The notes beneath the pieces were generated by a model. That model did no database searches. It had not been told where the DNA came from and worked only from the letters and a program-made list of their open reading frames with translations. DNA of 64,000 nt from Lytechinus pictus. Its lineage: Eukaryota. Positions within the stretch are counted from its first letter, which is position 1; the number at the start of each line of letters is the position of its first letter. Below are positions 36,912 through 62,871 of this stretch, piece after piece. Made by a program: the position numbers and the translations under genes. Location of the stretch: contig NC_087251.1 of NCBI RefSeq assembly GCF_037042905.1, positions 7,628,001 to 7,692,000 of the forward strand, written 5' to 3'.

Positions 36912-37290
36912 CAGCGCGTGTTATCGCGTTGCCAAAACCCATAGACGGAGCAAAAAAGAACGATAAGATTAAGATTCTAGGTTTTATCCTCCTTTTTGGC
37001 TCCATCAATGGCAACGCGATAACACGCGCTGGAGTCAAAAAGGAAGATAAAGTAATAGTACGCTGAAAATTATTGTGTGTTACTGTGTATGATATCATAT
37101 CATCTAGGATGATCCATTATGATTTGGGGGTGTGATGATGCGAGAGTTATCATGCAACGTCGTGTCAACGGAGAAATTGTCCCACGTGCGAGAGTCTTGT
37201 CCATGAGAGAGCTAACTAGCTGAGCTCGCTCGCATTGAACGAAATAAATCTATTGAAAATCAACGAGGCGTAGTCGTGCTCAGTGAAATT

Positions 37291-40667: not shown

Positions 40668-42643
40668 ATAAAGGTCTTCCTATCTCCATGGTTAGCAAAA
40701 TATATGTTTGAGTAGATCCAAAAAGAAAGAATATTTTGTTTGGGGTGTGGAAAAGGTTTTGTTTGTTTTATTTTGTTGATGTTGTGTTTTGTTTTGTTTT
40801 CGTGTGTGCTTTATATATGAAATCTTTATTCAGATTATTGTATACTTTCTAAGAATAAACATAGAGACTTTTTTTTCTGTATTGTCTTACAAAAGTTGGA
40901 GGAATGAATATACATGTATAAGTACTTTTTTTTATTATGGGATAACCTCTTCACTTAAAAAAGTCTGTACTTTTGATTTTTCATCATACAATACGGTATT
41001 ATTATACAGTAAATACATGTGAAATTACGAGGTTTTTGTTATTGGTATTATGGGTTATGATAATATTTGTTCGAAAAATTTATATCAAGATGTATATTAT
41101 TTCATTTGTTATATTGCTGTATAAGTGTACTTCACTTTAATTTGCATACATGTATTTGATTTATTACCCTTGTATATGAAAAATGTAATAGTGTCTGAAT
41201 AAAGGCTAAAAAAGCAAGAGAAAAAAAAAAAAAAAAAAAAGGCGAAACAAGTTTCAGCAATTATTATCTCACACAGCAAATCAGCAGTCAATTCATATTT
41301 TTACATTCTTGGAGGAAAAAATTAAAGAAACATAATTTAAAACATGCATAAAGGATGTGACATCATGAGCTCGCCCACTGCATATTCTTGTGGGCATGCA
41401 TAAAACTGTTTCACCGACTAAAAAAACAACTTTGAATTGTCATAGCATTTTGGGGGTCCTATTTCGATGAAATTTATTTGGTGTTGCCTGATTTTTCTCT
41501 ATCTGTTCAAATCATATAGGCGGCGGAAGCCGGGAAAGAGAGGACACGACAAACTAGAAAGAGAAATAAAGAAAGAAAGAAAGAAAGAGGAAAGGGAAAA
41601 AGAAAGAACTAGAACTTGAACCGAAAACTAGCAGCTTTGACTTTGAAAGTAAAATACACCAAATTTTAAACTCGCGTGCTGTACAGTACTCCTACGAATT
41701 TAGTCAGAAAAGAAAGGCAAGCAAAAACAAAAAAAACTAAACAAAGATGTTAATGCAAAGCACGGACAATATTTGATACAGATCTGAAAATGGAACACTT
41801 CAAGAATTAATTGTTTGTGGGAATTATGCGTATATCGCTAATCAAAGTAGCGCGAGCATGATATTTTGTTATTCAGCACTTTTTTGTGTTATGAATACTA
41901 TGTCGCTCAAACAAAGTAACAAAAACTTGGATCGCGAGCAGAATAATGTGCAAATTGACTTGAAAACAGAATATAAGCCCTATATCACGCAAGAAAATCC
42001 GAGCGAATTTTTTAGTTAAATATAATGAGCTGAATTTTCAGTTGAATTAACTCTTTTTACTCATATCAATTTTCCTTTTCTTCCCTCCTTTATTATCCCC
42101 CGTTCTATTTTCCTTCCCCCTTCCCCCTTCCCCCTTCCCCCCCCCCCCTTGCGCCATTTTGGCACACTGCATGTATCCGCCTGTATGGATAATATACGTA
42201 CAACAAATTATGATCAAATAAGTATATAGACATATACGACTTGAATTATGTTTCAATTTTTCTTTTCTGTTAAATGTTCATGATAAAAAAAACTTGGGGT
42301 ATAAGGGGCCAGACACACTACCGGGGCCGTGGAACGGTTTTGATAGTGGGGGGGGGGGGCAAGCGCGAATCCAGCATCAGATCCTGCAAAGTATTTCATG
42401 GGCCCAATTTTCTGGGGACAATAGTGACTCTATTCCCTCTATTAATTATGCTCGTGCATGGGCCCATACATTTCTTTGTTATAGTTGATGCTGCCGGATA
42501 CGCTTGTGGAGGGGGGGGGGGGGGCTGACCATATGCAAAACATCATAATCAGATGGTCATTTTCTTTTGTGTACCGGCTAATTTGGAAAAAAAGGGGAGA
42601 GGGGGCTGAAGCCCCTCCTTAGCCCCCGGTTCCGCGGCCCCTG

Positions 42644-43048
42644 CACAAAATTCTTTCTAAAGTCCTTTCAACACAAGTAAAGGATGTTTTGGATGAAATA
42701 ATTTCACCAGATCAAGTTGGTTATATGGAAAATAGAAATATAGGTGAAGCCATAAACAGTGATGTTATATGCCATGCCTCTAATTATAATATACCTGTTT
42801 TTGTTTAGTTGCCATTGATTTCGAAAAAGCTTTCGATCAGTTTCGCATGTATTTTTACAAAATGTATTGTATTCATTCGACTTTGGTCCATCTTTTCGTA
42901 AATGGGTTAATATTATGTACACTAACACCCTTAGTTGTGTTACGAACATGATGAATAGAGGATATTTAACTGGTTACTTCAATGTCGATAGGGGAGTAAA
43001 ACATGGAGATCCATTATCTCCCTATTTGTTTATTATTTGTATTTAAAC
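42644..43048 (+). mobile_element. L1/Tx1-like LINE reverse transcriptase fragment (duplicated copy)
   Basis: Translates to KILSKVL..IISPDQVGY..NRNI, DFEKAF, FGPSFRKWV, RGVKHGDPLSPYLF, with frameshifts. Confidence 0.85.
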
Positions 43049-46044
43049 CACTGGCGTAAATCCGTGTTGATGGGTGGGGGGGATGACTGAAATATTTTGG
43101 CATTTTTTTGCAATCATGTTTTAGATATGCAAGGAATTGTCATTGATATGTCCACAGTGGCGTACCGTGGGTCGCGGCATTGGGGGGCACCAGCAAAAAT
43201 TTTAAATCACTGAGTGAGTGCGCTAGTGAGCGCGCGAAGCGCGCTCAGTTGCCAGTTATACTGACCAAATAGAGACATTTTAAGGACAATGTCATTAAAC
43301 GGATATGTATCTCACTGATCAAATAATGCGAGCGCGAAGCGCGAGCTGAAATTTTTTCATATTCACCCTAAAAAGGGACATTATAATCAAATTTGTGTAA
43401 TTATGATAGGTACCTGTCTCGCTAAACAATGCGAACGCGAAGCGCGAGCTGAAAATTTAGATAATTCAGACCTGAAGTGGGGCATTTAAGGTTTCTTTGT
43501 AGGAATTAACTAGGACCATACGTATTTCATTAACCAAATGATGCGAGCGCGAAGCGCGAGCTGAAAATTTTTGATATTCAGATCAGAAGAAGGGACATTT
43601 TAAGGACTGATTTGGGGAAATAAATGCTGAATTGAAATTGAAATTGAATTCATGAAGAGCAGACATATCTCACCAATCCACTAATGCGAACGTAATCACG
43701 GACAGGAAATGTTTCATATATACGAAGACCTTAACATGGGGCAATCACTTTTTGAGACATGAAAAAGAAGCATATATGTCACTACATAAAACAATGATAA
43801 CTCAAGTGCTAGGAAACATATTTGGTTTGTATTGACTTGAAAACGGGATGTTTTAGTACAACAGGATTATATATCTCGTTAAACAGACAGTGCGAGCACC
43901 AGGAACAATGAAGACGTAGGCCCTGGGCAAATCATAAAGTTATGATAAAAAATTTTCTTATGTAATGTAACATAACATAATTATAAATATAATATAATAT
44001 TATAATGATGAATAATATTTTCTTCTTTCACTATGTTTCTCTTCCTTTCTCCCTCTTTTCTCCTTTTCCCCCTTTCCCCGTTTTTTTTCTGGTCAGCCGA
44101 TGGGGGGGGGGATGTGCCCCCATGTCCCCCGTAGTTGCGCCACTGTATGTCCATATGGCAAATTTGATTTATTACCCTTGTATATGAAAAATGTAATAGT
44201 GTCTGAATAAAGGCTAAAAAAGCAAGAGAAAAAAAAAAAAAAAAAAAGGCGAAACAAGTTTCAGCAATTATTATCTCACACAGCAAATCAGCAGTCAATT
44301 CATATTTTTACATTCTTGGAGGAAAAAATTAAAGAAACATAATTTAAAACATGCATAAAGGATGTGACATCATGAGCTCGCCCACTGCATATTCTTGTGG
44401 GCATGCATAAAACTGTTTCACCGACTAAAAAAACAACTTTGAATTGTCATAGCATTTTGGGGGTCCTATTTCGATGAAATTTATTTGGTGTTGCCTGATT
44501 TTTCTCTATCTGTTCAAATCATATAGGCGGCGGAAGCCGGGAAAGAGAGGACACGACAAACTAAAAAGAGAAATAAAGAAAGAAAGAAAGAAAGAGGAAA
44601 GGGAAAAAGAAAGAACTAGAACTTGAACCGAAAACTAGCAGCTTTGACTTTGAAAGTAAAATACACCAAATTTTAAACTCGCGTGCTGTACAGTACTCCT
44701 ACGAATTTAGTCAGAAAAGAAAGGCAAGCAAAAAAAAAAAAAAAACTAAACAAAGATGTTAATGCAAAGCACGGACAATATTTGATACAGATCTGAAATG
44801 GAACACTTCAAGAATTAATTGTTTGTGGGAATTATGCGTATATCGCTAATCAAAGTAGCGCGAGCATGATATTTTGTTATTCAGCACTTTTTTGTGTTAT
44901 GAATACTATGTCGCTCAAACAAAGTAACAAAAACTTGGATCGCGAGCAGAATAATGTGCAAATTGACTTGAAAACAGAATATAAGCCCTATATCACGCAA
45001 GAAAATCCGAGCGAATTTTTTAGTTAAATATAATGAGCTGAATTTTCAGTTGAATTAACTCTTTTTACTCATATCAATTTTCCTTTTCTTCCCTCCTTTA
45101 TTATCCCCCGTTCTATTTTCCTTCCCCCTTCCCCCCCCCCCCCCCCCTTGCGCCATTTTGGCACACTGCATGTATCCGCCTGTATGGATAATATACGTAC
45201 AACAAATTATGATCAAATAAGTATATAGACATATACGACTTGAATTATGTTTCAATTTTTCTTTTCTGTTAAATGTTCATGATAAAAAAAACTTGGGGTA
45301 TAAGGGGCCAGACACACTACCGGGGCCGTGGAACGGTTTTGATAGTGGGGGGGGGGCAAGCGCGAATCCAGCATCAGATCCTGCAAAGTATTTCATGGGC
45401 CCAATTTTCTGGGGACAATAGTGACTCTATTCCCTCTATTAATTATGCTCGTGCATGGGCCCATACATTTCTTTGTTATAGTTGATGCTGCCGGATACGC
45501 TTGTGGAGGGGGGGGGGGGGCTGACCATATGCAAAACATCATAATCAGATGGTCATTTTCTTTTGTGTACCGGCTAATTTGGAAAAAAAGGGGAGAGGGG
45601 GCTGAAGCCCCTCCTTAGCCCCCGGTTCCGCGGCCCCTGCACAAAATTCTTTCTAAAGTCCTTTCAACACAAGTAAAGGATGTTTTGGATGAAATAATTT
45701 CACCAGATCAAGTTGGTTATATGGAAAATAGAAATATAGGTGAAGCCATAAACAGTGATGTTATATGCCATGCCTCTAATTATAATATACCTGTTTTTGT
45801 TTAGTTGCCATTGATTTCGAAAAAGCTTTCGATCAGTTTCGCATGTATTTTTACAAAATGTATTGTATTCATTCGACTTTGGTCCATCTTTTCGTAAATG
45901 GGTTAATATTATGTACACTAACACCCTTAGTTGTGTTACGAACATGATGAATAGAGGATATTTAACTGGTTACTTCAATGTCGATAGGGGAGTAAAACAT
46001 GGAGATCCATTATCTCCCTATTTGTTTATTATTTGTATTTAAAC

Positions 46045-47536
46045 CACTGGCGTAAATCCGTGTTGATGGGTGGGGGGATGACTGAAATATTTTGGCATTT
46101 TTTTGCAATCATGTTTTAGATATGCAAGGAATTGTCATTGATATGTCCACAGTGGCGTACCGTGGGTCGCGGCATTGGGGGGCACCAGCAAAAATTTTAA
46201 ATCACTGAGTGAGTGCGCTAGTGAGCGCGCGAAGCGCGCTCAGTTGCCAGTTATACTGACCAAATAGAGACATTTTAAGGACAATGTCATTAAACGGATA
46301 TGTATCTCACTGATCAAATAATGCGAGCGCGAAGCGCGAGCTGAAATTTTTTCATATTCACACCTAAAAAGGGACATTATAATCAAATTTGTGTAATTAT
46401 GATAGGTACCTGTCTCGCTAAACAATGCGAACGCGAAGCGCGAGCTGAAAATTTAGATAATTCAGACCTGAAGTGGGGCATTTAAGGTTTCTTTGTAGGA
46501 ATTAACTAGGACCATACGTATTTCATTAACCAAATGATGCGAGCGCGAAGCGCGAGCTGAAAATTTTTGATATTCAGATCAGAAGAAGGGACATTTTAAG
46601 GACTGATTTGGGGAATTCATGAAGAGCAGACATATCTCACCAATCCACTAATGCGAACGTAATCACGGACAGGAAATGTTTCATATATACGAAGACCTTA
46701 ACATGGGGCAATCACTTTTTGAGACATGAAAAAGAAGCATATATGTCACTACATAAAACAATGATAACTCAAGTGCTAGGAAACATATTTGGTTTGTATT
46801 GACTTGAAAACGGGATGTTTTAGTACAACAGGATTATATATCTCGCTAAACAGACAGTGCGAGCACCAGGAACAATGAAGACGTAGGCCCTGGGCAAATC
46901 ATAAAGTTATGATAAAAAAATTTCTTATGTAATGTAACATAACATAATTATAAATATAATATAATATTATAATGATGAATAATATTTTCTTCTTTCACTA
47001 TGTTTCTCTTCCTTTCTCCCTCTTTTCTCCTTTTCCCCCTTTCCCCGTTTTTTTTCTGGTCAGCCGATGGGGGGGGGGGGGATGTGCCCCCATGTCCCCC
47101 GTAGTTACGCCACTGTATGTCCATATGGCAAATACCCCTCCAATATTATTATCTTTTTTACCCCATGATTGTTTAATGGTTTTATTAGAGATTACATTCA
47201 TATTTTTTTGACATTCCATCTTAATCCCTTCCAAAGACCCTAACATTGATGAATTGGAAGAAACGGGGTTTCTCTTCAATGTTATAATAAGGACATAAGT
47301 ATTTCGTTTGGAAATGGTGAATGGCTTTTTATTTGCATTTTATGATTCAATAATATTGTTTTATTTGTTAAGCGGTATTTTAGGAAGAATTTTCACCAAT
47401 AAAACAATTATCTCTTGTGATTTTTTTTTCATTTCTTTCGTAAAAAGTGGGGGGATGTTTGTACAGGCCATCCCCCCCCCCTCCTCGAAAAGTGGGGGGA
47501 ATATATCCCCCCATCCCCCCGGGATTTACGCCAGTG
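46045..47536. mobile_element. hAT-like MITE inserted in the LINE RT
   Basis: TIRs CACTGGCGTAAATCC / GGATTTACGCCAGTG, 8-bp flanks ATTTAAAC / ATTGAAAC. Confidence 0.8.
46150..47115. mobile_element. Nested hAT-like CAGTGGCGTA element (duplicate at 43155-44145)
   Basis: CAGTGGCGTA / TACGCCACTG TIRs, perfect 8-bp duplication TATGTCCA, internal GCGAGCGCGAAGCGCGAGCTG repeats. Confidence 0.85.
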
Positions 47537-49462
47537 ATTGAAACACTCTCTCATGTGATTCGAAATGATAATTTAGTTGTGGGTTTACACTTTGGACACA
47601 CAGAAGTGAAACAAGTTCTTTATGCAAATGACATTACACTTTTTGTTAAAAATCTTAGTGCCATGAACCGTTTATAAATAATTTTTGAAAGTTTTGCAAG
47701 TGTATCTGAATTAAAAATGAATAAAGAAAAGACTTTTGTAATGTTACTAGGCAATGCTAATCAAGAAAAACCGGGAGCATCCCCATTCGGACAAGTAGTA
47801 TTTATAAAAATATTAAGATTATATTTTAGCTTACACATTCATGTACAAGAATTAAGGAATTTTGAGCAAAATCAAAAACTCCCTCTCGTGGTGGAAACAA
47901 AGAGATTTAACGGTAATGGGTAAAATACAATTGTTAAAAACTTTCATACACTCTAAGTTAATATTTATAACGCCATTCAATCCAATTCGATATTTCAGGA
48001 ACTTGATAAATTGATCTGTGACTTGTTATGGAGAGGAAAGGATAAAGATAGGCGAACTACGATGTTTCTTGATTACAAATATGCATGGGGACTTAAAATG
48101 ATGAGTTTTGAATAGTTTGTCAAAGTTTAGATAATCATGTGGGTTTAAAAGATTATTAATTGGGAACCAACAAATTAAATGGAAATTATATTTCGATTAT
48201 GGTTCTCAACATCTCGGAGGAAAATTCATTTTTTCTCTGTAAATATGATATTCGACAGTTAAAACTGTCTTTATCGCCATTTTATTGAGAGCTATTGAAA
48301 GGGTTCGCGCCGACGACCACACAACACAGACACGAGGGCTGAGGTTTCTTCAGTTCTTTTATTGACCAACCCAAAAAACAGCCTCGGTCAGAACACTAAT
48401 TCCGCATTTGCTTCAACATCTTCAGACTACTGTATATTGAACATGAAGGGAAGTCCTCGCAGAAATCTTCTATACTTCAAAATTAAACTTTCTTCTGCAG
48501 GAACAAGTATCCTCCTCAACAACAAACAGTGGGAATGCCCTTGCTACTGCCAGTGTCATGAGTCACTAGACTCTCTCCTTAGCTAACAATAAAAGTGCAA
48601 TGGTGCACATCAAAGTACAAAAGCATCCCTAAAGAGGGGGTACATGAATTGGCATTACTGCTACTCCTAAAAAGGCGGGAAAGAATTAGCCAATGAGCAG
48701 AGAGGGAAAGAGTAAGGCAAAGTTGGTATACCTACAGAGAGGGAGAAAGAGTACTGTGAAGAAAACCCCTTTTCGTTAAAAGAAAGATCTAATCTTCAAA
48801 ATAAAGATTTAGATTTCCCCATATTTCATTTGTTAAATATTGAGCTTTGTTTGTTTACATCACGTAACTGAACGCCAGTATAGTCATTGAATGCCGGCGA
48901 TCAGCTGTTTTTACTACGTGAACTGTGACCTGAATTCCGGAGAGAGACTGGTGAATTTACTTGGATTAATTGCTAGTGTGCGCGCATACGTGTTAGCGCA
49001 GAGGAATTGGTATATTTCTGCTGAGTCACGCCATATTCACGTAGAGCCAGCAGTATGATCTATTTATGGGACCGGTATGGTCTGTTATGAAATTTTATGA
49101 GCGTTTAAATAGCTCTAAGTAAAAATTTGAATCTTACCTTTTGTGTAGATTCTCTGGAAGTTGATGACAGCATTAATTTATTGCTGGAATTTCTTCATTC
49201 ATGTTTGGATACTGTTATTTTCCTTTATTCTGAGACAATTACCGCCAGGATTTTGAACTCTTCCTTGGATCTAAAGCTCTGATGCGCGCATACGCGCACA
49301 GACGCGCTATCATTGGTATTTTAAAGTATTGAATTTGCATAGCATCCCGCTGCGTAATGTTTATGTGAAGAGAGTGGTTTTTAAAGCACTAAAATTACAT
49401 AACAACCCGCCGCGTAATGCAATGAGCTCAGAAATTGCCAAAATCCTGGGGGGCCAAAAGTC

Positions 49463-49470
49463 TATAAATA
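49463..49470 (+). promoter_or_regulatory. Candidate LTR TATA box (copy at ~59405)
   Basis: TATAAATA followed by G-rich then pyrimidine-rich sequence, ~700 bp into the LTR. Confidence 0.5.
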
Positions 49471-50301
49471 GGGGAGGTTTGAGGAGTTTGTCATATCGTC
49501 TGGAAGCTCTCTTGAGTTAAGTTAGCTCTCCTAGTCAATTCACATTCACTCTCTCGAGAATTCTCGTTCTCTGTTTCTCTTTCTACATTGTACATTCTTC
49601 TGTGAGTACATTACGTCATAATATGACACTTAGATTCATTCAGGGAATTCAGCGAGATTAATGATGAATTTTAGCTAGGAATTTGAAATCATTCGTCACC
49701 TTTTTGGGATTAGTGACGATTTTTGGCAACCAATACTCTGTTGTATTTCTTAAGTTATAGTCAGCTTGGATTTATCAGCTGTTCACAGAAACTGGGCAGC
49801 TATTGTTATTCTTAAGCAGACTTTGATTCATTTGTCAAGTCTACTAATTGTTTGATAGATATCTAGAGAAGATATGAAAGCATTTATTGGTGCTTATTTG
49901 TGTTCTTTTTGACATGAACACAGATGTTTGGAGCAGATAGGAATTAATTGATGGTCACAATAGTGAACATGAATGCTGACTGTTAATTTATCTTTCTGGA
50001 ATCTCCTGAATGGATATTTAATTACCTTATTTATGAAATTTGATAATTTATGCATTTTTATATTATGAATTTATTTCTGACTTGATGACAATATTTAGGC
50101 AGTCCTTTTAAGGACTCTTGACAGTCTGAATATTAAATCAAATTATCTAGTCAGAGAAATTAAATTACTGCATTGATAAAATTATTCTACCAACGTGGAA
50201 AAGGCTAGTGTCAGATTTTCAATCTCTAAATAGAGATTATCTTTTTGGTCAGTAACATTTGACATAAAACTGTCAAGTTGTTCTGGAATGTGTGTTGTTT
50301 T

Positions 50302-51955
50302 CAGCGGCGTAACAGGGGTCGGTGGCCAGGGGGGGCAAGAGCCCAAAATTTCCCGGTCATATAATATGGTATGAACATGCAGGTGTAATGGTGTAATGAG
50401 GCGACTATTTTGAGAAGGCCAGATATTGCGTATTGGGCAGAATTTATCTTTAAAAAAGTTGCGAGCGAGCGGAGCGAGCGAGCAAAAATTTTGACCTTTT
50501 TAATACAAAAATCCAATTTTGTGATAGATTTTGACATGATATCCAGCTATAGAGAATAAGATATTTCACTCTTCTTTGTGGCAGTAGCGTGAAGAGTAAA
50601 AAAAAACGAGGGGCGCAGTATAGCACGAGCTAAAAAGCTGCTTTATAAAAGTCCAGAGCGAGCGCAGCGAGAAAAAAAATCACCTTTTCATGAAAATAAT
50701 AATACTAATAATAATACTTCTCTTATATAGCGCATAATAAACTGAAAATTTCTCTACGCGCTTTGCAATAAAGGAAACAAAATACACACACTGCAAACAA
50801 AGAAGAATCTAACTTAGCAATTTTTTAAAATTATATTCAGTAAATAAAATCATATTCTACACTTTTCCTTTGCTTTTCTTTCCTCCTTTTTTTGTTCTTG
50901 TTTGTAGAACTTTTTGGGACCATGGCCCAACCCTTCCATACGAAGTGCTGTGCGGTTGGGGTCCGGGGCGGATCCCCCGGAACTTCTAGATATCAAAGCC
51001 ATTTAAACCTCGCAGATTGCCGCTATTTTAATCAATTCGCGGGCATGTACAGGATATAGCTTTTACACTACACATTTATTCAACCAAGTAGCGTAATGAA
51101 CCAAATATTTTGAGGGGCAAAACATAGTAATGTGCATGGGAAAAATCTGTAAAACGTCGCCAGCGTGCAAAGCGCGAGCTGGAAAAAATTGCCTATTGAA
51201 ATTACATTCTAATTATGTTATACATTTTTCCATTTGCAGCAAATAACACATTTCAATGTTTCCATTCATTTCATTACACGTTGTCTCCTATAATTTCATT
51301 TATTTCCTCTTGGGTGTGGAACCAAGAACCCCCGCGCCTGTGCAGTGATTGAAAGTGATTGTGAACCGGGGGGGGGGGCGTTATAGAGCCATTTGAAGGT
51401 TATAAATGAAGAGCCCCTACTGCGTGGGGTCTGGGCAAAGCCCCGGTAGCTTATTTGCATAAAATTTAGCAAGCTTATAGCACAATGTTGTATGCAGTCC
51501 ATCTTTCTTCCCGCTCTTTAATTTCAGTCATCGGCAGCCCGATCGTGTTATTTTTTTTTTCTTGTCCCTTTTCTTTGTTTTCCAATTAAACATTAGCTTT
51601 TGACTAATTACATTCTACCTTTGTTTCCCGCTATTGCATGTATGCCATTTTGTCATCTTTTAATTTCTTTCCCACCGTACTATTGCATTACATAGGCCTA
51701 TTTCGGAATGATTTGTTCTTTCTCAAATGTTCTTCTTTCGTATATTTTCCCGCTTTCCTTCATTTTCTATTTAAAAAAGTTTTTTCTTCGCTTTCTTTTC
51801 ATTTTTTCCTTTCCCTTCCCTTTCCTCCTTTCCTTTTCCCCTTTTTCTTTCTCCCTCCTTTTTTTTTCTTTTTCCCGTTTTTCTTTTATTTTCCCGGTGA
51901 AATCCGCCAGGGGGGGCAACTTGCCCCCCCTGCCCCCCCGCCTGTTACGCCACTG
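50302..51955. mobile_element. hAT-like composite MITE inserted in the 5' LTR only
   Basis: TIRs CAGCGGCGTAACAGG / CCTGTTACGCCACTG and 8-bp duplication GTTGTTTT. The empty site is visible in the 3' LTR at ~60230. Confidence 0.92.
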
Positions 51956-52204
51956 GTTGTTTTGGTATCGCTTTGAATATTGATCTGACTTTGGGATTTT
52001 TTCCACATTGGTCGTTTAAAGGATATTTATTGATAGAGTCGTGAACTCAATTCTTATTTCAGGATTAATGACTGATTATTTATTTACATTTCTTACATCA
52101 TATACAAATAGGATCACACTAAACAAAGCTAGCCATCATGAGTGTTCGGATGTTAAGATCACGTGTAACTTAGGTGTCAAGCATGCTATTCCCGTAGTTG
52201 TTAA

Positions 52205-52336
52205 GATCAGAATACTTAATGTTATAAGCTCAGAATACTTAATGTTATACAGATCAGAATACTTAATGTTATACAGATCAGAATACTTAATGTTATACAG
52301 ATCAGAATACTTAATGTTATACAGATCAGAATACTA
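52205..52336. repeat. 24-bp tandem repeat inside the LTR, ~5.5 copies (also at ~60480-60611)
   Basis: Unit AGATCAGAATACTTAATGTTATAC. Confidence 0.92.
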
Positions 52337-54437
52337 AATATTAATTCTGATAATCTGACGAATACAATGTAACTAGATTAGAATATTGATTCTGACATTA
52401 AGATTACAAGGTAAAAGATGTGAATAATCAATGGAATGTAAATAGCTGATTATCAATCAGAAAGCATTTGTAAACAACTTGTAAATAATTTAAACTCTCT
52501 GTGCAGTCATTCACATGTTTTATTAAGAATACTTGATGTTTATAGTCATAGACTGAAGTAAACTCAGTTTATAGATGAAGCTCAATTCTTCATTTAGAAT
52601 ATTGACACGGTATTAATAGATGGTTGATTTAGTTACAGTGAAATAGGAATAATTGCTTAGGTGTTGGTCTTTCAGACTTGTTTTCACTTAGCTGTATTCT
52701 CAGACAGCAGGGACGATGTTAAAGTTTCCGGTAGGCTTTAATGCTAAGAAAGGTACTATGTGAGTCTATTCTTGAACCCGTGATGATTAGAGATATTTAC
52801 GGATTTCTGAGGCTTTTCATCACACAGAATGTTGGATGTTGTTACAAACTTCACACCGACAAAGTGAGTGGAAGTTTTGTAGGCGCTGTAAGGCTGGTAA
52901 ACAAGGCCCGTTGAGAGGTTGATAGGATAAGGATATTATTGGAGATTGGTGTGTTGTATTGGGTTAGTGACATTGGATGGAGAAAGATTATGAGTAACTG
53001 CTGGCAGTTTAGATAGGATTACTCACATAAGTCAGAACGACAGAAAAGAACCATTGGTCCTGGAACTTTTGTGGAGAGTAGATTACAGTCTTAAGTTGAA
53101 ATAATTCTTAGAGAGAACACAACTCTACGGAGTATAAAGTACAGAACTAAGTAGGATGCTCGATACTTACAATTGATATAGATTATTGCTTAGTGTATTT
53201 ATAACAGTGAATACATAGGATTTATCAACTTAGTAATTAATTATTATTCTATTTATCATTCTATCAATTTAAGAGTGACATGCACAGACTTACATTTAAG
53301 TTCTTTATTATGTAGAGTAAGTTATACAATTTTATATTGCTCATTCCATATTCAATGAATTTTATACTTATGCAAATTGATGTAAATATCCAAATTTTAT
53401 TGTTGAAATGTTTCAGAAGAATGGTTAACTTCAAGTTTTTCTTATATTAAAGTTCAGTTGAACTTTACTTGTTATTTCTTAGGAATCAATAATTGAACTT
53501 GCACACTTGAATCTAGAAGGAACATGATTAGTGATCAGTGTTTGTTGAGAATGATGAATCCAATAAATTGGATTTGTTGCTAAGTCTTAGAATTAGAAAT
53601 GGTGATCAATTGATTAGTGATGATTGATTGATGATGTGATTAGGGATAAGAAGTACCGTACAATTAGTTTAAGCATTATTTAAGTTAGGGTTCTTAGTTT
53701 ATTTATAGACCAACCTTGTATATTGCAAGAAAACGGAACTCGTCATCGAGCTTGGAAAACTACGCTTACCTAGTGAGACCCAGTGATAAAGAGCAGATTT
53801 GAGAACTGAGGAAAAGACTAGAATGATTGATTGCGAAGCAAGGACTGACCGCTTCTATGATTGCCTATGTGCATACGACTGCACGTGTGTGATGTGGATA
53901 TGCCTGATCGTGTGTGTGTAGAACACGAGGCGAACAAAACGTTTTGTATGTGAGTGAATAGAGATTTGGTTCATGGCTAACTCTATCGATGAAAGATGAG
54001 AAATATCATGGTTATATAATTAAATCTTACTTAATCATTCAGTGAGTAAACTCACCAGTTAAATTCTGCTGTGAAGGTCAGGACGCTGGAGTATGACAGA
54101 AGTCTTGTGATGGGAGAAAAGACGGTTTTCTTCAGATTATCGGAGCTCCTTCAACCTCTGTGGATCTGGCAGAATGGAGAGGCTAAAAGTTGGCGGTCGA
54201 TGTGAGAAGATGGACCAATCACGGAGCTCGTAGTAGAACTCAGATATTATGGAACTTGAGATGGCTATTCTGATTGGTGGTTCACTAGCTCTTTAAAGTT
54301 CTCATCGAAGAAAAGTTTCTTCATTACGGTCAAGTGTTAAATTATGCTTGGCCAAGAGCTCAATAACTCTCTAAACTATTGTGGTGGCAGCATACTATTT
54401 TTAAAGGTTATTTTGATAGGGTCTCACGTTACATTTT

Positions 54438-54457
54438 TGGTGGCACGGCGGTGGGAT
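54438..54457 (+). other. Primer binding site, tRNA-Leu-like
   Basis: TGGTGGCA(CG)GCGGTGGGAT 4 nt after the 5' LTR. Complementary to a tRNA-Leu 3' end (…AUCCCACCGCUGCCACCA) apart from a 2-nt insertion. Confidence 0.7.
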
Positions 54458-54905
54458 GGTCTTTTCAAAGAACCCCTCCACTTTTAAAAGAAAAAAAAAA
54501 ATACGGGTACATTTTTGTCTGCTAAGTAGTAGAATGATCTGTATTAAGTATATAAAAAAAAAAATTTGCTATTATTATGTATAGTTGTGTACGGTACTAG
54601 TAGATATTTAAGAATGTATTGTTTAAGCTATGTATAATAAATAAGTTGTGTTTTGAGTTCCTTATTACAAGTGTGCATTAAATAAGTTAAGATTGAATAT
54701 GGAAAATGAGCATTAATATGTCTATGGACATGACAGTGAATTAATCACTGTGAATAATAAGGAAATCTACTCCTTTTACAATGTATCTATTCCTTTTACA
54801 ATGTAAGGGTACGTTTGCTTGACACAATCTAAAACATGTATATTTATACTTAAACACAAGAAAATTAATCAAACATCCAAATAAATCAAAACTATAACAC
54901 TCAAT

Positions 54906-55825
54906 ATGGTGAAACCAAGCGTCGAGCTACAGTCTGAGTTAGCAGCTGGATACTGAAGTTGTGGAGGCTGAATGGTTGAAATGACATTGACGCTGGATAG
55001 GTTCTCACCGTGAGGCTCGTAGAGGCAGAACTGGAGGTCTCAAACAGTCTATATGGTCAGGAACTCACCTACCCAATCTGACTTCACTTTGGACAGATGA
55101 CTTGGTCCTGGAGAGAACGCTGAAACCTTGTTGCTGGAATTGCGGACTAGGCATCGACAGCGAAGAGTCTACAGGAACTAGGTCAGGCAATTAGGGAACT
55201 TACTTGCCTGGCATACCCGGAGCTGAGCATTGATGTTGGAGAGGCTTGCTAGTTTTCTCAGTAGCAATTGACGGAGAGGTCAGAGGTGCTATTTTCTGAG
55301 CTCACCCCAGGACGCTAGATGAGGCGATGGCAGCTGGGTTGACAATGGAGTCTTTTCCACAGACGGAGAAGGCAGGAGAGAGGAATAAGCCACGTCACGT
55401 CGGAGCAGTAGGGGATGGAGCGCAGTCGTCACCTGCAGATGAGAGAGTAAAGGAGATAGAAGAATTACAGTCAAGCCTGCAAGTGAATCAGAATGATGAA
55501 AGAACAGATGAGTGTGAAAAGGATTGGAGGCTAACCATGAATTGTGTACTTCAACTGGAGAAGCTGGACACATCAGTCATGATGCAGCAAAGTGGAACAG
55601 AAAGGTCCAGAGAACTAGGTGTTCAGATGGAGGTAGTGAATCTTTTGAGAAGCTAAGCTGGAACAGATGTTGATGAGATTATTGGAATGGACTTCTTACA
55701 GGAAGCAGATGAAACTGTTGGTTTTTAAATGGATGATGTTGGGTATCAACTCACCTTGGAAAATTGTGCTGGACATGCTCACTCAAATGCTGATGGGTTA
55801 TCCAGACAACCTTGCACCGATTGCT
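54906..55825 (+). pseudogene. Decayed gag / protease-end / RNase H-end remnants
   Basis: gag-like LGQAIRELTCLAYPEL (~55178), protease C-terminal-like IIGMDFLQ (~55680), RNase H end HSNADGLSRQPC (~55780). Many stops. Confidence 0.7.
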
Positions 55826-56192
55826 GACATTGTTGGAGATTGAAGATGACTGGAAGAGAAAGAGAAGTATAAATGATTAGACTTTATTTCTATTAGATTT
55901 TGAATTGTTACATTAATTGAATTTATATCAATGTTTTTCATGAGTGAACTATATTGGATTTTATTGTGGTTATTAATGAGATTTTGACATGGAAGCTGGA
56001 GAGTGTGATGAAAAGGAGATGTCTACCATAACATTTATGCCAATAACTGAAGAGGAAATCAGGAAGGCACAGTTACAAGATGGAGACATAAAGCATATTT
56101 TGGGATGGAAGGAAATATGCAGTGAGTGACCGAGCTGGAAAGATGTTTCACACCTATCATCAGCTACTAAGGTTTACTGGGTAAACTGGACT

Positions 56193-57428
56193 TTGCTAGA
56201 GGTACAAAAAGGTGTCTTGATGAGGAGATGGGAATCAGAAGATGGAAAGGAGATAACTTGGAAAATTGTACTCCCTCGTTCTTTGCGAAGTACAGTACTG
56301 GAGGAATTACATGGTTCTCAAACAGCTGCTCATCTTGGAGTCAATAAGACATTGCATAAAGTACAGAGGAGATATTACTGGGTTGGACTTGCTGCAGATG
56401 TGCGATTGTGGATTAAGAGATGTACTATCTGTGCACAGCTGAAAAACCCCCCAAAGAAGAATAAAGCTCCACTTCAGAAATATAGAGTTGGTGCACCACT
56501 AGAAAGGGTAGCGATGGACATTTTGGGCCCTTTACCCGAGACGGACAGTGGAAACAAGTATGTGTTAGTCGTGGGAGACTATTTCACGAAATGGATAGAA
56601 TCGTACCCATTACCAGATCAGGAGGCGGAGACGATTGCTAGGGTACTAGTGGAGGAGTTTATTTGTCGGTATGGAATACCAAAAGAACTACATAGTGACC
56701 AAGGGAGGAATTTTGAGTCAAGGCTGATGGCAGAGATGTGTAAGATGCTTGGTATTAAGAAATCAAGGACTTGCCCACTACACCCACAAGGAGATGGATT
56801 TATAGAAAGATTTAATAGAACCTTACTGGGTATGGTGTCGTCATTGCTCAATCCAGATGACGAACAGAAGGACTGGGATGAGAGGATTTCGTTCGCGATG
56901 TTGGCATACAGGTCAGCAGTCCAGGAATCAACTGGAGAGAGTCCTGCTATGATGATGCTTGGAAGAGAAATCAGTCTGCCGGTAGATTTGCTGTTACCTT
57001 CTCCAACACCTGCAAATGAAGAAGAATCGGACTATGTGAGTGATGTGAGGGAAAAGTTACACGAGGTACATGAAGGTGCTAGAGAAAAACTTGGAATTGC
57101 AGCTGAAAGACAGGCTAAGTCTTATGATAGAAATATCATTCAGCAAAGTTTTACGACTGGAGATTGGGTGTGGTTATTCGACGCATCAAGGAAGAAAGGA
57201 GTGTGCCCTAAGCTGAGCACGAAATGGAAAGGACCATTTATGGTAGTAACCAAACTTTCTGATGTCGTATATCGAATCCAGGAATCATCGAGAGGCAAAC
57301 CAAAGGTGGTGCACATCGATCGACTAAAGGCTTATACTGGAAAGCCTTTGAAAAACTGGTTGACACAAGAAATCAGGCATAATCCAAATAGAAACAGGGT
57401 TCCACCACAAAGATACATTGAACTTTGA
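56193..57428 (+). CDS. Gypsy-type integrase (HHCC zinc finger, DDE core, GPY/F)
   Basis: LH..HLG...C..C; MDILGP, HSDQGRNFES, IERFNRTL; KWKGPF. The frame extends upstream to an ATG at 55989 with a single TGA at 56127. Confidence 0.95.
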   Translation: MLEVQKGVLMRRWESEDGKEITWKIVLPRSLRSTVLEELHGSQTAAHLGVNKTLHKVQRRYYWVGLAADVRLWIKRCTICAQLKNPPKKNKAPLQKYRVGAPLERVAMDILGPLPETDSGNKYVLVVGDYFTKWIESYPLPDQEAETIARVLVEEFICRYGIPKELHSDQGRNFESRLMAEMCKMLGIKKSRTCPLHPQGDGFIERFNRTLLGMVSSLLNPDDEQKDWDERISFAMLAYRSAVQESTGESPAMMMLGREISLPVDLLLPSPTPANEEESDYVSDVREKLHEVHEGAREKLGIAAERQAKSYDRNIIQQSFTTGDWVWLFDASRKKGVCPKLSTKWKGPFMVVTKLSDVVYRIQESSRGKPKVVHIDRLKAYTGKPLKNWLTQEIRHNPNRNRVPPQRYIEL

Positions 57429-57575
57429 GTCACAGAAACAATACATCTTCACCATGATGACTGTATTCAGAAATTTATTCAAAAATATTCCTTTCTTTAT
57501 CATTTTTATTGTATGTATGACAACATACAATTATATGCCTTGTATGCTTTGTAATTTGTATCTTACAGTACCAGG

Positions 57576-58544
57576 ATGGAAGTTATATGCAGCCAGTGCA
57601 AAAGAGTATTTTCATCTTATCCGGAATTAAACTATCATTTACGGAAGGTTCATCAAATGACTTTTCTTATTCACTGTCAAAGATGTAATCACGAGACTGA
57701 GAGAAGAGAGACAATGAGACAGCATTACAAACGACATCATAGAGCTCATATCAAAGAAGTAGACACAATACGATCTAGCCCAACTTTGCCTAAGCCTAAA
57801 GACAGGATGGAGGAACAGCAGGAAAGGGAGAAGAGGAGACAGATTGAAGAAGAAAGGGAGAAAGAGAAGAACAGACGAGAAGAGCAGAGGAAGAGGAAAG
57901 AGGAGGAGGAAAGGATCGAGGAGGAAAGGAGGCGACAAGAAGCAATAGAGGAAGGAAGGAGGAAGGATAGTCAAGAAAGAGTTTGGAAAAGGGTTGATAG
58001 GAGTATAGAAGACGAGATAGACGAAGAGATCATAGAAGAACGAAGGAAACTTGAGGAAAGTAGGGAGAAAGAAGAAGAGGAGAGGCAACTGGATGAGGAA
58101 GGAAAGCAGCTAGAAGAGGAGAAACGTAAGATAGAGGAGGAGGAGAAAAGATTAGAGGAAGAAAAGAGGAAGCTAGAGAGAAGGAAACATGAAAAAGAAG
58201 CCAAGCAGGAGTTAGCAAAAAGACAGGAAGAAGAGAGACTAGAGAAAGAAAGGGAGTTAGAGAAGAAAAGATTAGAAGATGAGGAGAAGAGATTGAAGGA
58301 GGAAATCAGACAGATTGCAGAAGGCAACACAGAAGATAAACCAGAAAGTAGAATTGTTGAACTTGTCGGTGATAAACAGAATATTTCTATAAAACTTCCT
58401 GAGTGCCAAAGTGAACAGATCCAAATAGTATCAAAGGTTACAATTGCGACATCTTATTATACCAAGACCAAGAATGGATACACTCTAAAAAGAAGATTAA
58501 TTGACTCTCACTATCCGGAGAAAAGACCAAAAGTTGCAAAGTAA
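57576..58544 (+). CDS. Accessory ORF: two C2H2 zinc fingers, long E/R/K-rich helix, basic C-terminus (322 aa)
   Basis: CSQC-x12-HLRKVH and CQRC-x12-HYKRHH. ATG in a good context (AGGATGG), uninterrupted frame, ends ~150 bp before the PPT. Confidence 0.85.
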   Translation: MEVICSQCKRVFSSYPELNYHLRKVHQMTFLIHCQRCNHETERRETMRQHYKRHHRAHIKEVDTIRSSPTLPKPKDRMEEQQEREKRRQIEEEREKEKNRREEQRKRKEEEERIEEERRRQEAIEEGRRKDSQERVWKRVDRSIEDEIDEEIIEERRKLEESREKEEEERQLDEEGKQLEEEKRKIEEEEKRLEEEKRKLERRKHEKEAKQELAKRQEEERLEKERELEKKRLEDEEKRLKEEIRQIAEGNTEDKPESRIVELVGDKQNISIKLPECQSEQIQIVSKVTIATSYYTKTKNGYTLKRRLIDSHYPEKRPKVAK

Positions 58545-58696
58545 TTTGTTGTCATGTATTTTGTATGATCTTTATGTATTTTATGATGTTTAAGAATACT
58601 TTTATGTACATGAATATTCATGTATTGCTATATATTGATATTTAATGCTATTATAATGTAGTCACTGGGACAGTGACTTTATTTGGCTGGGGGTAG

Positions 58697-61600
58697 TGTG
58701 AAGAAAACCCCTTTTCGTTAAAAGAAAGATCTAATCTTCAAAATAAAGATTTAGATTTCCCCATATTTCATTTGTTAAATATTGAGCTTTGTTTGTTTAC
58801 ATCACGTAACTGAACGCCAGTATAGTCATTGAATGCCGGCGATCAGCTGTTTTTACTACGTGAACTGTGACCTGAATTCCGGAGAGAGACTGGTGAATTT
58901 ACTTGGATTAATTGCTAGTGTGCGCGCATACGTGTTAGCGCAGAGGAATTGGTATATTTCTGCTGAGTCACGCCATATTCACGTAGAGCCAGCAGTATGA
59001 TCTATTTATGGGACCGGTATGGTCTGTTATGAAATTTTATGAGCGTTTAAATAGCTCTAAGTAAAAATTTGAATCTTACCTTTTGTGTAGATTCTCTGGA
59101 AGTTGATGACAGCATTAATTTATTGCTGGAATTTCTTCATTCATGTTTGGATACTGTTATTTTCCTTTATTCTGAGACAATTACCGCCAGGATTTTGAAC
59201 TCTTCCTTGGATCTAAAGCTCTGATGCGCGCATACGCGCACAGACGCGCTATCATTGGTATTTTAAAGTATTGAATTTGCATAGCATCCCGCTGCGTAAT
59301 GTTTATGTGAAGAGAGTGGTTTTTAAAGCACTAAAATTACATAACAACCCGCCGCGTAATGCAATGAGCTCAGAAATTGCCAAAATCCTGGGGGGCCAAA
59401 AGTCTATAAATAGGGGAGGTTTGAGGAGTTTGTCATATCGTCTGGAAGCTCTCTTGAGTTAAGTTAGCTCTCCTAGTCAATTCACATTCACTCTCTCGAG
59501 AATTCTCGTTCTCTGTTTCTCTTTCTACATTGTACATTCTTCTGTGAGTACATTACGTCATAATATGACACTTAGATTCATTCAGGGAATTCAGCGAGAT
59601 TAATGATGAATTTTAGCTAGGAATTTGAAATCATTCGTCACCTTTTTGGGATTAGTGACGATTTTTGGCAACCAATACTCTGTTGTATTTCTTATAGTCA
59701 GCTTGGATTTATCAGCTGTTCACAGAAACTGGGCAGCTATTGTTATTCTTAAGCAGACTTTGATTCATTTGTCAAGTCTACTAATTGTTTGATAGATATC
59801 TAGAGAAGATATGAAAGCATTTATTGGTGCTTATTTGTGTTCTTTTTGACATGAACACAGATGTTTGGAGCAGATAGGAATTAATTGATGGTCACAATAG
59901 TGAACATGAATGCTGACTGTTAATTTATCTTTCTGGAATCTCCTGAATGGATATTTAATTACCTTATTTATGAAATTTGATAATTTATGCATTTTTATAT
60001 TATGAATTTATTTCTGACTTGATGACAATATTTAGGCAGTCCTTTTAAGGACTCTTGACAGTCTGAATATTAAATCAAATTATCTAGTCAGAGAAATTAA
60101 ATTACTGCATTGATAAAATTATTCTACCAACGTGGAAAAGGCTAGTGTCAGATTTTCAATCTCTAAATAGAGATTATCTTTTTGGTCAGTAACATTTGAC
60201 ATAAAACTGTCAAGTTGTTCTGGAATGTGTGTTGTTTTGGTATCGCTTTGAATATTGATCTGACTTTGGGATTTTTTCCACATTGGTCGTTTAAAGGATA
60301 TTTATTGATAGAGTCGTGAACTCAATTCTTATTTCAGGATTAATGACTGATTATTTATTTACATTTCTTACATCATATACAAATAGGATCACACTAAACA
60401 AAGCTAGCCATCATGAGTGTTCGGATGTTAAGATCACGTGTAACTTAGGTGTCAAGCATGCTATTCCCGTAGTTGTTAAGATCAGAATACTTAATGTTAT
60501 AAGCTCAGAATACTTAATGTTATACAGATCAGAATACTTAATGTTATACAGATCAGAATACTTAATGTTATACAGATCAGAATACTTAATGTTATACAGA
60601 TCAGAATACTAAATATTAATTCTGATAATCTGACGAATACAATGTAACTAGATTAGAATATTGATTCTGACATTAAGATTACAAGGTAAAAGATGTGAAT
60701 AATCAATGGAATGTAAATAGCTGATTATCAATCAGAAAGCATTTGTAAACAACTTGTAAATAATTTAAACTCTCTGTGCAGTCATTCACATGTTTTATTA
60801 AGAATACTTGATGTTTATAGTCATAGACTGAAGTAAACTCAGTTTATAGATGAAGCTCAATTCTTCATTTAGAATATTGACACGGTATTAATAGATGGTT
60901 GATTTAGTTACAGTGAAATAGGAATAATTGCTTAGGTGTTGGTCTTTCAGACTTGTTTTCACTTAGCTGTATTCTCAGACAGCAGGGACGATGTTAAAGT
61001 TTCCGGTAGGCTTTAATGCTAAGAAAGGTACTATGTGAGTCTATTCTTGAACCCGTGATGATTAGAGATATTTACGGATTTCTGAGGCTTTTCATCACAC
61101 AGAATGTTGGATGTTGTTACAAACTTCACACCGACAAAGTGAGTGGAAGTTTTGTAGGCGCTGTAAGGCTGGTAAACAAGGCCCGTTGAGAGGTTGATAG
61201 GATAAGGATATTATTGGAGATTGGTGTGTTGTATTGGGTTAGTGACATTGGATGGAGAAAGATTATGAGTAACTGCTGGCAGTTTAGATAGGATTACTCA
61301 CATAAGTCAGAACGACAGAAAAGAACCATTGGTCCTGGAACTTTTGTGGAGAGTAGATTACAGTCTTAAGTTGAAATAATTCTTAGAGAGAACACAACTC
61401 TACGGAGTATAAAGTACAGAACTAAGTAGGATGCTCGATACTTACAATTGATATAGATTATTGCTTAGTGTATTTATAACAGTGAATACATAGGATTTAT
61501 CAACTTAGTAATTAATTATTATTCTATTTATCATTCTATCAATTTAAGAGTGACATGCACAGACTTACATTTAAGTTCTTTATTATGTAGAGTAAGTTAT

Positions 61601-62708
61601 ACAATTTTATATTGCTCATTCCATATTCAATGAATTTTATACTTATGCAAATTGATGTAAATATCCAAATTTTATTGTTGAAATGTTTCAGAAGAATGGT
61701 TAACTTCAAGTTTTTCTTATATTAAAGTTCAGTTGAACTTTACTTGTTATTTCTTAGGAATCAATAATTGAACTTGCACACTTGAATCTAGAAGGAACAT
61801 GATTAGTGATCAGTGTTTGTTGAGAATGATGAATCCAATAAATTGGATTTGTTGCTAAGTCTTAGAATTAGAAATGGTGATCAATTGATTAGTGATGATT
61901 GATTGATGATGTGATTAGGGATAAGAAGTACCGTACAATTAGTTTAAGCATTATTTAAGTTAGGGTTCTTAGTTTATTTATAGACCAACCTTGTATATTG
62001 CAAGAAAACGGAACTCGTCATCGAGCTTGGAAAACTACGCTTACCTAGTGAGACCCAGTGATAAAGAGCAGATTTGAGAACTGAGGAAAAGACTAGAATG
62101 ATTGATTGCGAAGCAAGGACTGACCGCTTCTATGATTGCCTATGTGCATACGACTGCACGTGTGTGATGTGGATATGCCTGATCGTGTGTGTGTAGAACA
62201 CGAGGCGAACAAAACGTTTTGTATGTGAGTGAATAGAGATTTGGTTCATGGCTAACTCTATCGATGAAAGATGAGAAATATCATGGTTATATAATTAAAT
62301 CTTACTTAATCATTCAGTGAGTAAACTCACCAGTTAAATTCTGCTGTGAAGGTCAGGACGCTGGAGTATGACAGAAGTCTTGTGATGGGAGAAAAGACGG
62401 TTTTCTTCAGATTATCGGAGCTCCTTCAACCTCTGTGGATCTGGCAGAATGGAGAGGCTAAAAGTTGGCGGTCGATGTGAGAAGATGGACCAATCACGGA
62501 GCTCGTAGTAGAACTCAGATATTATGGAACTTGAGATGGCTATTCTGATTGGTGGTTCACTAGCTCTTTAAAGTTCTCATCGAAGAAAAGTTTCTTCATT
62601 ACGGTCCAGTGTTAAATTATGCTTGGCCAAGAGCTCAATAACTCTCTAAACTATTGTGGTGGCAGCATACTATTTTTAAAGGTTATTTTGATAGGGTCTC
62701 ACGTTACA
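58697..62708 (+). repeat. 3' LTR (4012 bp)
   Basis: Same termini as the 5' LTR. Preceded by the purine-rich tract GGCTGGGGGTAG. Confidence 0.95.
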
Positions 62709-62871
62709 GTACTAAAGATAAAGTTGGCAGATATAATGTGAAATATAGATTCATTATATGCATTATATTCAAATGCTACATGTACTGAAATGGAATAATA
62801 AAATATAGTTTTCTTTTAACTAGATTTTTAGAGAAATATTATACAAAAAAAAAAAACCAATTTACAACATC

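Follow-up and report, generated by a model that had tools for sequence, protein, structure and literature searches.

A C2H2 zinc-finger gene in the env position of a small Ty3/Gypsy clade of Lytechinus pictus

Extra genes in the envelope (env) position of retrotransposons with long terminal repeats (LTRs) are known, very few of them, to our knowledge, with a defined role, and the main animal example is CERV of Cer1. According to the portion of the published account available, CERV of this Caenorhabditis elegans Ty3/Gypsy element is a non-env protein that is encoded in the env position, is made from a spliced mRNA and acts on the RNA of the element (PMC10309623). We have analyzed a 64,000-nucleotide stretch of Lytechinus pictus DNA (hereafter the window; NCBI RefSeq assembly GCF_037042905.1, contig NC_087251.1, positions 7,628,001 to 7,692,000 of the forward strand) in which a Ty3/Gypsy element carries, between its integrase (IN) gene and its 3' LTR, a gene with two classical C2H2 zinc fingers, designated ORF3. 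ORF3 is a non-envelope gene in the env position of a Gypsy element, and its assignment as a clade-specific gene of a small Ty3/Gypsy clade is secure. Coordinates are window positions, and the genes and signals of the element all lie on the forward (+) strand.

ORF3 occupies positions 57576 to 58544, with its ATG at 57576 and its stop codon at 58542-58544, and encodes 322 amino acids (aa). The ATG lies 148 nt beyond the IN stop codon (57426-57428), and the gene ends ~140 nt before the polypurine tract (PPT), which is followed by the 3' LTR. The probability of such a frame being open by chance, calculated from segment composition as a product over segments, is ~2.5e-9; when the segments were shuffled individually, 68, 4 and 48 per 20,000 stayed open. 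Four stop-to-stop frames of at least 250 aa occur in the 64-kb window, the two longest being IN and ORF3. The middle third of ORF3 is A+G-rich DNA (8% T), in which long frames arise easily, while the finger and tail parts are ordinary in composition. E, R or K account for 50% of the residues of the whole protein. No signal peptide or membrane span was found in ORF3 (Kyte-Doolittle means over 19 residues peak at 0.21), and the product is therefore not an envelope. A preliminary description of this stretch had listed an open 322-aa frame between IN and the PPT, two canonical C2H2 fingers, ~170 aa rich in E, R and K, a C-terminal KRPK motif, and the lack of a hydrophobic signal or transmembrane segment. 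Each of these features was recovered, the charged region measuring 173 residues (77-249).

The genomic survey covered the window's own assembly (812 Mb in 368 contigs), and the copy counts given here are lower bounds. Searches with the window ORF3 and with the ORF3 of a sister family returned 33 and 51 genome matches, respectively, and 17 ten-kilobase stretches and three shorter ones were examined in detail (loci with L numbers below). In every copy with an IN C-terminus, ORF3 follows IN by ~60-240 nt or overlaps its end. Full-length elements have four frames, namely gag (with a CCHC motif), protease-reverse transcriptase-RNase H (PR-RT-RNase H), IN and ORF3. The window belongs to family A, a low-copy family of approximately eight elements and one solo LTR whose ORF3 subfamilies are 40-80% identical. 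Family B is represented by three copies with identical 271-aa ORF3 frames and with gag, Pol and IN all open. The ORF3 of family C is 263-328 aa, and in family D an ORF3-like frame of 190 aa or more comes after an IN of 482 aa. When an IN search (89 matches) was crossed with both ORF3 searches, ORF3 was found directly downstream at 12 of the 14 loci with an IN at least 61% identical to that of family A; the remaining two loci have fragmentary INs, one stopping at aa 320 and one at aa 370. No ORF3 match lay near any of the 74 matches in the same genome with IN identity of 52% or less. These distant Gypsy families have ordinary pol frames of 1,300-1,900 aa, whereas the ORF3 clade has a separate IN frame of 480-516 aa. 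The preliminary description had proposed a tBLASTn survey of this kind, and in this one genome ORF3 recurs directly after IN both in other copies and in diverged sister families. Presence in four families speaks against the recent, one-off capture of a host exon that it had named as an alternative.

Between families, ORF3 is 21-26% identical, as compared to 65-71% for IN. Ratios of nonsynonymous to synonymous substitution (dN/dS) were calculated by the Nei-Gojobori method for the window ORF3 against each copy, with codons containing gaps or stops dropped. The ratio was 0.18 against L013 (dS 0.86) and 0.13 against L014 (dS 0.99), and 0.10-0.25 in the region of a C-terminal hairpin described below. 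Because alignment in the repetitive E/R/K part is uncertain, the values to be relied upon are those for the fingers and the hairpin. Close copies gave ratios of 0.36-0.53, on only 8-17 changes. The ratios between subfamilies are indicative of purifying selection, at 0.13-0.18 rather than the value near 1 by which the preliminary description would have recognized a freely disrupted frame. It is highly probable, in our estimation, that ORF3 is a real, selected gene of the element.

The two C2H2 fingers (aa 5-26 and 34-55; 57588-57740) are recognized by their spacing, by invariant ligands, in an AlphaFold2 (AF2) model and by profile matches to the PDB. Finger 1 reads C5-x2-C8-x12-H21-x4-H26 and finger 2 reads C34-x2-C37-x12-H50-x3/4-H54/55, and both satisfy the C-x2-4-C-x12-H-x3-5-H spacing of classical C2H2 fingers. 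All eight zinc ligands, along with Y15 and E40, are invariant in an alignment of six ORF3 sequences from the four families. The AF2 model of full-length ORF3, built on a 15-row alignment, has a mean predicted local distance difference test score (pLDDT) of 76.9 and a predicted template modeling score (pTM) of 0.27. It contains two successive beta-beta-alpha (E-E-H) units in the finger region (pLDDT 76-87), followed after finger 2 by a helix at residues 56-64 and a strand at 67-70, and modeling the finger domain alone gave the same fold (pLDDT 80.2). A profile of the finger region matched BCL11A (5e-7), ZNF217 (3e-6), ZFAT, CTCF and SALL4 in the PDB (range 5e-7 to 2e-5), and the nearest solved relatives, as judged from these profiles, are two-finger binders of double-stranded DNA (dsDNA). 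Foldseek returned no match at E<=0.001 for the full model or the finger domain; its top rows were tandem C2H2 DNA binders, with probability up to 0.92 and E of 0.1 or more. The profile and structure predictions that the preliminary description had recommended thus both give tandem C2H2 fingers, with Pfam scores below threshold.

A basic patch directly follows the finger pair. Beyond it, an E/R/K-rich helical spacer (aa 77-249; 57804-58322) consists of 37% E, 19% R and 14% K (70% in total) with 16% hydrophobic residues, and AF2 places helices at 77-139 and 146-249 with pLDDT ~90. By composition and predicted long helix, the spacer matches an ER/K single alpha-helix. In families B and C, the spacer is part E/R/K and part an acidic Ser/Glu/Asp run, an architecture that, by analogy, would be that of a predicted DNA-binding head joined to an acidic region. 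Residues 251-271 are predicted to be disordered. The protein then ends in a predicted amphipathic beta-hairpin (aa 288-312; 58437-58511), delimited by a three-family alignment, AF2 and the low dN/dS given above. Its AF2 strands span residues 288-298 and 301-312, 10-residue block means over residues 291-310 are 83 and 82, and its pattern is kept across the three families. The KRPK motif at residues 316-319 is retained only within family A.

A 3' splice-site-like motif, consisting of a pyrimidine tract and YAG (57548-57575), adjoins the ORF3 ATG, with candidate acceptor sites at 57568 and 57574. In five of five versions (families A, B, C and D and one A subfamily), this motif ends 0-1 nt 5' of the ORF3 ATG, against a background of 29 of 2,684 window ATGs (1.1%) in the same test. 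A pyrimidine tract with TAG is also present 30-45 nt 5' of the IN ATG in all four families, and the family-A leader has two donor-like sites, at 54803 and 54809. At the level of sequence, the acceptor-like and donor-like motifs fit env-style subgenomic messages. In the ORF3 clade, IN is a cistron of its own with its own ATG (L009, L012, L021-L023, L027, L028; window 55843-55988), and the spacer between RNase H and IN is 70-170 nt long, AT-rich and contains stops in all frames. The possibility that this spacer is an in-frame intron was considered and rejected, since one family has a stop one codon 5' of the IN ATG and the frames do not join. Read-through of the IN stop codon into ORF3 was likewise rejected, as the relation of the two frames varies between families. 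Both the separate IN cistron and these acceptor motifs point to a more elaborate mode of expression than would be expected of a retrotransposon.

ORF3 is likely to encode a factor that binds nucleic acid in the nucleus and whose message is spliced; leaving the message aside, we hold nucleic-acid binding in the nucleus to be somewhat more probable than not. The explanation that we favor overall, with a probability of roughly 35%, is that ORF3 is a selected accessory gene for a DNA-binding regulator of the element's own expression. Under this hypothesis, ORF3 would be translated from a spliced subgenomic mRNA whose acceptor adjoins the ATG, and the protein would enter the nucleus. There, its fingers would bind nucleic acid, most likely dsDNA in the long LTR of the element itself, its spacer and hairpin would recruit or join a partner, and the protein would act as an element-encoded, transactivator-type regulator of its own expression. 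An LTR-binding transcriptional regulator is preferred because the nearest relatives of the fingers are dsDNA binders, because the layout is that of a binding head with an acidic or charged region, and because ORF3 evolves fast, as LTRs are assumed to do; the proposal is nevertheless a tentative one. The preliminary description had proposed a nuclear accessory protein acting as LTR transactivator, integration tether or anti-silencing factor. Of this, a non-env, Gypsy-borne gene with genuine C2H2 fingers that recurs after IN is upheld, and six insertion sites, considered below, lend no support to a sequence-specific tether.

Several observations weigh against the regulator hypothesis. The fingers miss the Pfam cut-offs (zf-C2H2_4, 22.5 bits against 27; zf-C2H2, 18.2 against 25.2), although scores below cut-off are common for single C2H2 fingers. 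In finger 1, read by eye, the positions that usually contact bases are occupied by S, P, E and Y, which is atypical for DNA reading, and binding of RNA or protein by ORF3 is therefore also possible. ORF3 is frameshifted in five of six close family-A copies (97.8-99.2% identical, one at 79%), such that only the window copy has both the ATG and an unbroken frame; the others carry an insertion of 2 nt (after base 8) or of 4 nt, a deletion of 4 nt, a pair of deletions of 16 and 88 nt, or many indels. Decay of individual copies is as expected. RNA-Seq, another check proposed in the preliminary description, gave no reads over 57395-58689 and no splice joints in three raw runs carrying the same species label, with ~6% of each run read and tissue unstated. 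A few reads from these runs fell on the LTRs, and a contig-only run of unspecified kind covers ORF3 in pieces. Finally, the choice of an LTR regulator over its rivals is made on architecture and analogy only.

Among the rivals, ORF3 may be an integration tether, in which the fingers would read chromosomal DNA or chromatin while the hairpin held IN or the pre-integration complex and thereby steered insertion, as a free-standing counterpart of the chromodomain of chromoviral INs or of the host factor LEDGF. The constant adjacency of ORF3 to IN, the retention of exactly IN and ORF3 by the deletion derivative in the window, and a head-spacer-dock layout suited to an adaptor are all in keeping with this. 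At six insertion sites, the 4-bp target-site duplications (TSDs) are GTAC, CTAC, GTAT, ATAT, GTAT and ATAG/ATAT, perfect in five of the six copies and invariant in the central TA. No shared k-mers (5-7) beyond shuffled expectation were found within +/-46 bp of these sites, and with no motif beyond the central TA there is therefore no support for a sequence-specific tether, although n is 6 and targeting by chromatin state is possible. The far faster evolution of ORF3 than of IN is odd for a fixed IN contact, and known targeting modules are usually fused to IN, so that we consider a tether unlikely. We give about the same low weight to an RNA factor like Rev or CERV, by which ORF3 would bind unspliced genomic RNA and promote its export, stability or packaging. 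C2H2 fingers are able to bind RNA, Arg-rich runs are present in ORF3, and the acceptor-like motifs that precede IN as well as ORF3 in each of the four families would leave unspliced RNA in need of protection. A factor of this kind is encoded by Cer1, in the env position and from a spliced mRNA, as far as its description was available (PMC10309623). Set against this, the nearest solved relatives of the fingers bind dsDNA, no leucine-rich export signal is evident by eye, and splicing is predicted from motifs only, with no joints in the partly read RNA-Seq runs described above.

Fast evolution would also be explained if ORF3 were a counter-defense factor that binds or decoys a component of host silencing, in the piRNA or a chromatin pathway. 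Divergence between families far above that of IN, upon a scaffold that stays constrained, is the pattern expected of an arms race. However, ORF3 has no similarity to any known suppressor and nothing in its sequence indicates a particular host target, and we think this explanation less probable still than a tether or an RNA factor. A passenger, meaning a host zinc-finger exon captured once by an ancestral element and carried without serving it, is already disfavored and is the least probable of all, at the level of a long shot. It would account for the resemblance of the finger pair to ordinary host poly-zinc-finger proteins (12,181 proteins at E<=0.001) and for the three similar modules (31-35% identity) held by two starfish proteins, P0072 and P0075. 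Yet ORF3 has been kept in four families across saturated synonymous divergence with low dN/dS, the ligands, hairpin and acceptor motif are conserved, retroelements are under size pressure, and fingers of host origin could still serve a function today. A broader form of the regulator hypothesis, which we regard as possible and rather doubtful, is that of an echinoid Gypsy clade with a genome like that of complex retroviruses. Such a genome would comprise four cistrons, acceptors before IN and ORF3, 4-kb LTRs, and its own sequence-specific C2H2 transcription factor that switches on the LTR or is otherwise required for replication, and the clade would be a possible source of host finger modules such as those of the starfish proteins.

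The element that carries ORF3 in the window has the Ty3/Gypsy hallmarks of direct LTRs (TG..CA) and a 4-bp TSD, and in the full-length copies L009 and L021 the Pfam domain order is zf-CCHC; Asp protease, RVT_1 and RT_RNaseH; Integrase_H2C2, rve and Integrase_p58_C. The TSD, read directly, is GTAC at 48751-48754 and again, after the 3' LTR, at 62709-62712. The 5' LTR (48755-54433), which is interrupted by a later insertion, and the 3' LTR (58697-62708; 4,012 bp) were delimited by self-BLAST and their ends were read; the paired segments are 48751-50301 with 58693-60238 (99.6% identity) and 51956-54433 with 60231-62708 (99.96%). The LTRs are ~4.0 kb, start with TGTGAAG and end with GTTACA, and they differ at 7 of ~4,029 aligned bases; the window copy is young. 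A TGG... stretch 5 nt after the 5' LTR (54439-54457) was read directly as a candidate primer-binding site, and the PPT (GGCTGGGGGTAG; 58685-58696), also read directly, is immediately 5' of the 3' LTR.

The internal region of the window copy is 4.26 kb only. Searches with the gag of L009 using tblastn identified remnants in several frames (54807-55482) that correspond to aa 1-62, 137-232 and 239-316 of 377 at 47-73% identity; the CCHC knuckle region of that query had no match in the window copy. With the L009 Pol as the tblastn query, aa 680-712 of 712 only were found, that is, the last 33 residues of the PR-RT-RNase H frame (55744-55842). Nothing is left of PR and RT and almost nothing of RNase H, a deletion that was mapped against L009 and L012. 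The IN cistron (55989-57428) encodes an HHCC motif, a DDE core and a p58-type C-terminus (Pfam Integrase_H2C2, 4.7e-20; rve, 8.8e-19; Integrase_p58_C, 1.8e-14) and has a single in-frame TGA near its N-terminus (56127-56129). A second copy, L011, on another contig, is colinear with the window copy over 7,550 bp at 95.9% identity and has the same deletion. The window copy therefore represents a non-autonomous derivative that has spread, rather than an element that eroded slowly. The preliminary description had taken a hint of selection from an ORF that stayed open while gag and RT decayed. That argument fails because the window copy is a young deletion derivative in which gag and RT have not slowly decayed: its LTRs are nearly identical, its PR-RT-RNase H region was lost in the one deletion shared with L011, and five of the six close copies of ORF3 are frameshifted.

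The second copy of the deletion derivative is on contig 3 (76243443-76280549). Its matching GTAT duplications are ~37 kb apart, and its 3' LTR therefore seems to hold a later insertion of ~25 kb. In the window, the 5' LTR alone is interrupted by 1,654 bp (50302-51955, no strand assigned) with terminal inverted repeats of 15 bp, one mismatch between them, and an 8-bp duplication, GTTGTTTT. The 3' LTR lacks this insertion, which resembles a non-autonomous DNA transposon of the hAT type that inserted later than the Gypsy element. Five 24-bp tandem repeats, detected in a repeat search at a spacing of 24, occur in each LTR ~1.8 kb from its start (52203-52343 and 60478-60618), and are candidate regulatory sites. 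Elsewhere in the window (11046-17664, 28779-29760, 34218-36913 and 41154-47133) are three satellite-like arrays, with periods of ~50, 77 and 156 bp by self-match offsets, and one two-copy tandem duplication of ~3 kb at 99% identity.

Two further tandem arrays in the assembly contain pieces of ORF3, and no further element genes adjoin either array. On contig 14 (~9.867-9.900 Mb; L019, L020), units of ~2.2 kb that are 87-92% alike contain the C-terminal half of a family-B-like ORF3, with many open 142-aa frames and no other element genes; this array could be a satellite or a domesticated gene cluster. On contig 2 (~33.92-33.96 Mb; L024, L025), the units consist of an IN C-terminus and the finger region of a family-C ORF3. 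Public gene models on the contig 2 array bear the name 'histone-lysine N-methyltransferase, H3 lysine-79 specific-like', apparently a misnomer due to low complexity.

Outside the elements, a word-indexed protein search with the finger region (residues 1-75) at near lengths found nothing, and ESM Atlas gave no usable match for the hairpin region. A hairpin profile, run against longer proteins, had a single match among public proteins, a 455-aa Lytechinus variegatus model named 'stress response protein NST1-like', which is chimeric, with an IN core joined to the C-terminal half of ORF3. The 12,181 proteins matched by the finger profile in an HMM search are mostly generic poly-zinc-finger proteins. 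The informative matches are two Lytechinus pictus models on the contig 2 array and two starfish host proteins annotated as 'uncharacterized', P0072 (Acanthaster) and P0075 (Patiria), whose three modules resemble the ORF3 finger pair and include the short helix after finger 2. Their best single-module scores, 41 and 37 bits, are the highest outside Lytechinus, with a margin of only ~4 bits over generic pairs, and a starfish module searched back against this genome had ORF3 copies as its top matches. Unlike ORF3, P0072 and P0075 are host proteins of considerable length (1,260-1,280 aa) that also contain other domains. A likeness of their C-terminal parts to the ORF3 hairpin was seen by eye and was not supported by hhalign. 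A connection of ORF3 with host finger modules should be taken as a lead rather than as a result.

Discussions of zinc-finger proteins usually present them as a weapon of the host against retroelements. If the regulator hypothesis holds, these roles would be turned round, with the zinc-finger protein carried by the retroelement itself, and a conserved, constrained C2H2-finger protein would offer, in a deuterostome Gypsy clade, a tractable example of a transposon that encodes its own nucleic-acid-binding regulator or adaptor. Were the genome indeed like that of complex retroviruses, it would be that of a retrotransposon bringing its own zinc-finger regulator. Public annotation is also corrected, in that pieces of ORF3 have been filed as host 'stress response protein NST1-like' and 'H3 lysine-79 methyltransferase-like' proteins.

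Compared to known systems, ORF3 resembles retroviral and errantiviral env (Drosophila gypsy ORF3) in lying between IN and the 3' LTR and in having a likely splice acceptor ahead of its ATG, and differs from it in being highly charged, with zinc fingers and with neither signal peptide nor membrane span. The two-finger regions of BCL11A (ZF4-5), ZNF217 (ZF6-7) and the SALL4 clusters (PDB 9e6s, 3uk3 and 7y3m) have the same spacing and the same 7-residue inter-finger link. ORF3 departs from these in lacking a TGEKP linker, in its atypical finger 1 contacts and in the extra AF2 helix (56-64) and strand (67-70); moreover, they are host transcription factors rather than transposon genes, and the Foldseek E-values are weak (0.1 or more). 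Troyka elements differ from the ORF3 clade in their termini and in duplication length, according to the part of their description available (PMC12440569). No C2H2-finger ORF3 in a Gypsy element appeared in the titles and abstract openings from a full-text literature search, which is not proof of absence in print. CERV, in the sections of its report that were accessible, is close in kind: its gene follows pol in a Gypsy element and takes the env position, and its product is a non-envelope protein without homology outside its host group, with helical and possible zinc-binding parts, a spliced mRNA and nuclear action (PMC10309623). It differs in its length of 517 aa, its five exons with the N-terminal ones shared with gag, its possible C4 zinc loop and its globular M and G domains (PMC10309623), whereas ORF3, compared here by description and known from sequence alone, combines a pair of classical C2H2 fingers with an E/R/K helix and a hairpin. 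LTR retrotransposons of bdelloid rotifers also have family-specific, non-envelope ORF3 genes 3' of pol that are thought to be spliced, including coiled-coil proteins (PMC5408684). The types described in the available text are GDSL esterase, DEDDy exonuclease, transmembrane, coiled-coil and paramyxovirus-like env, and the words 'zinc' and 'C2H2' are absent from that text (PMC5408684). Non-env ORF3 genes are thus already known from Cer1 and the rotifer elements, and, as far as these sources extend, the C2H2-finger type described here is a new variant among them.

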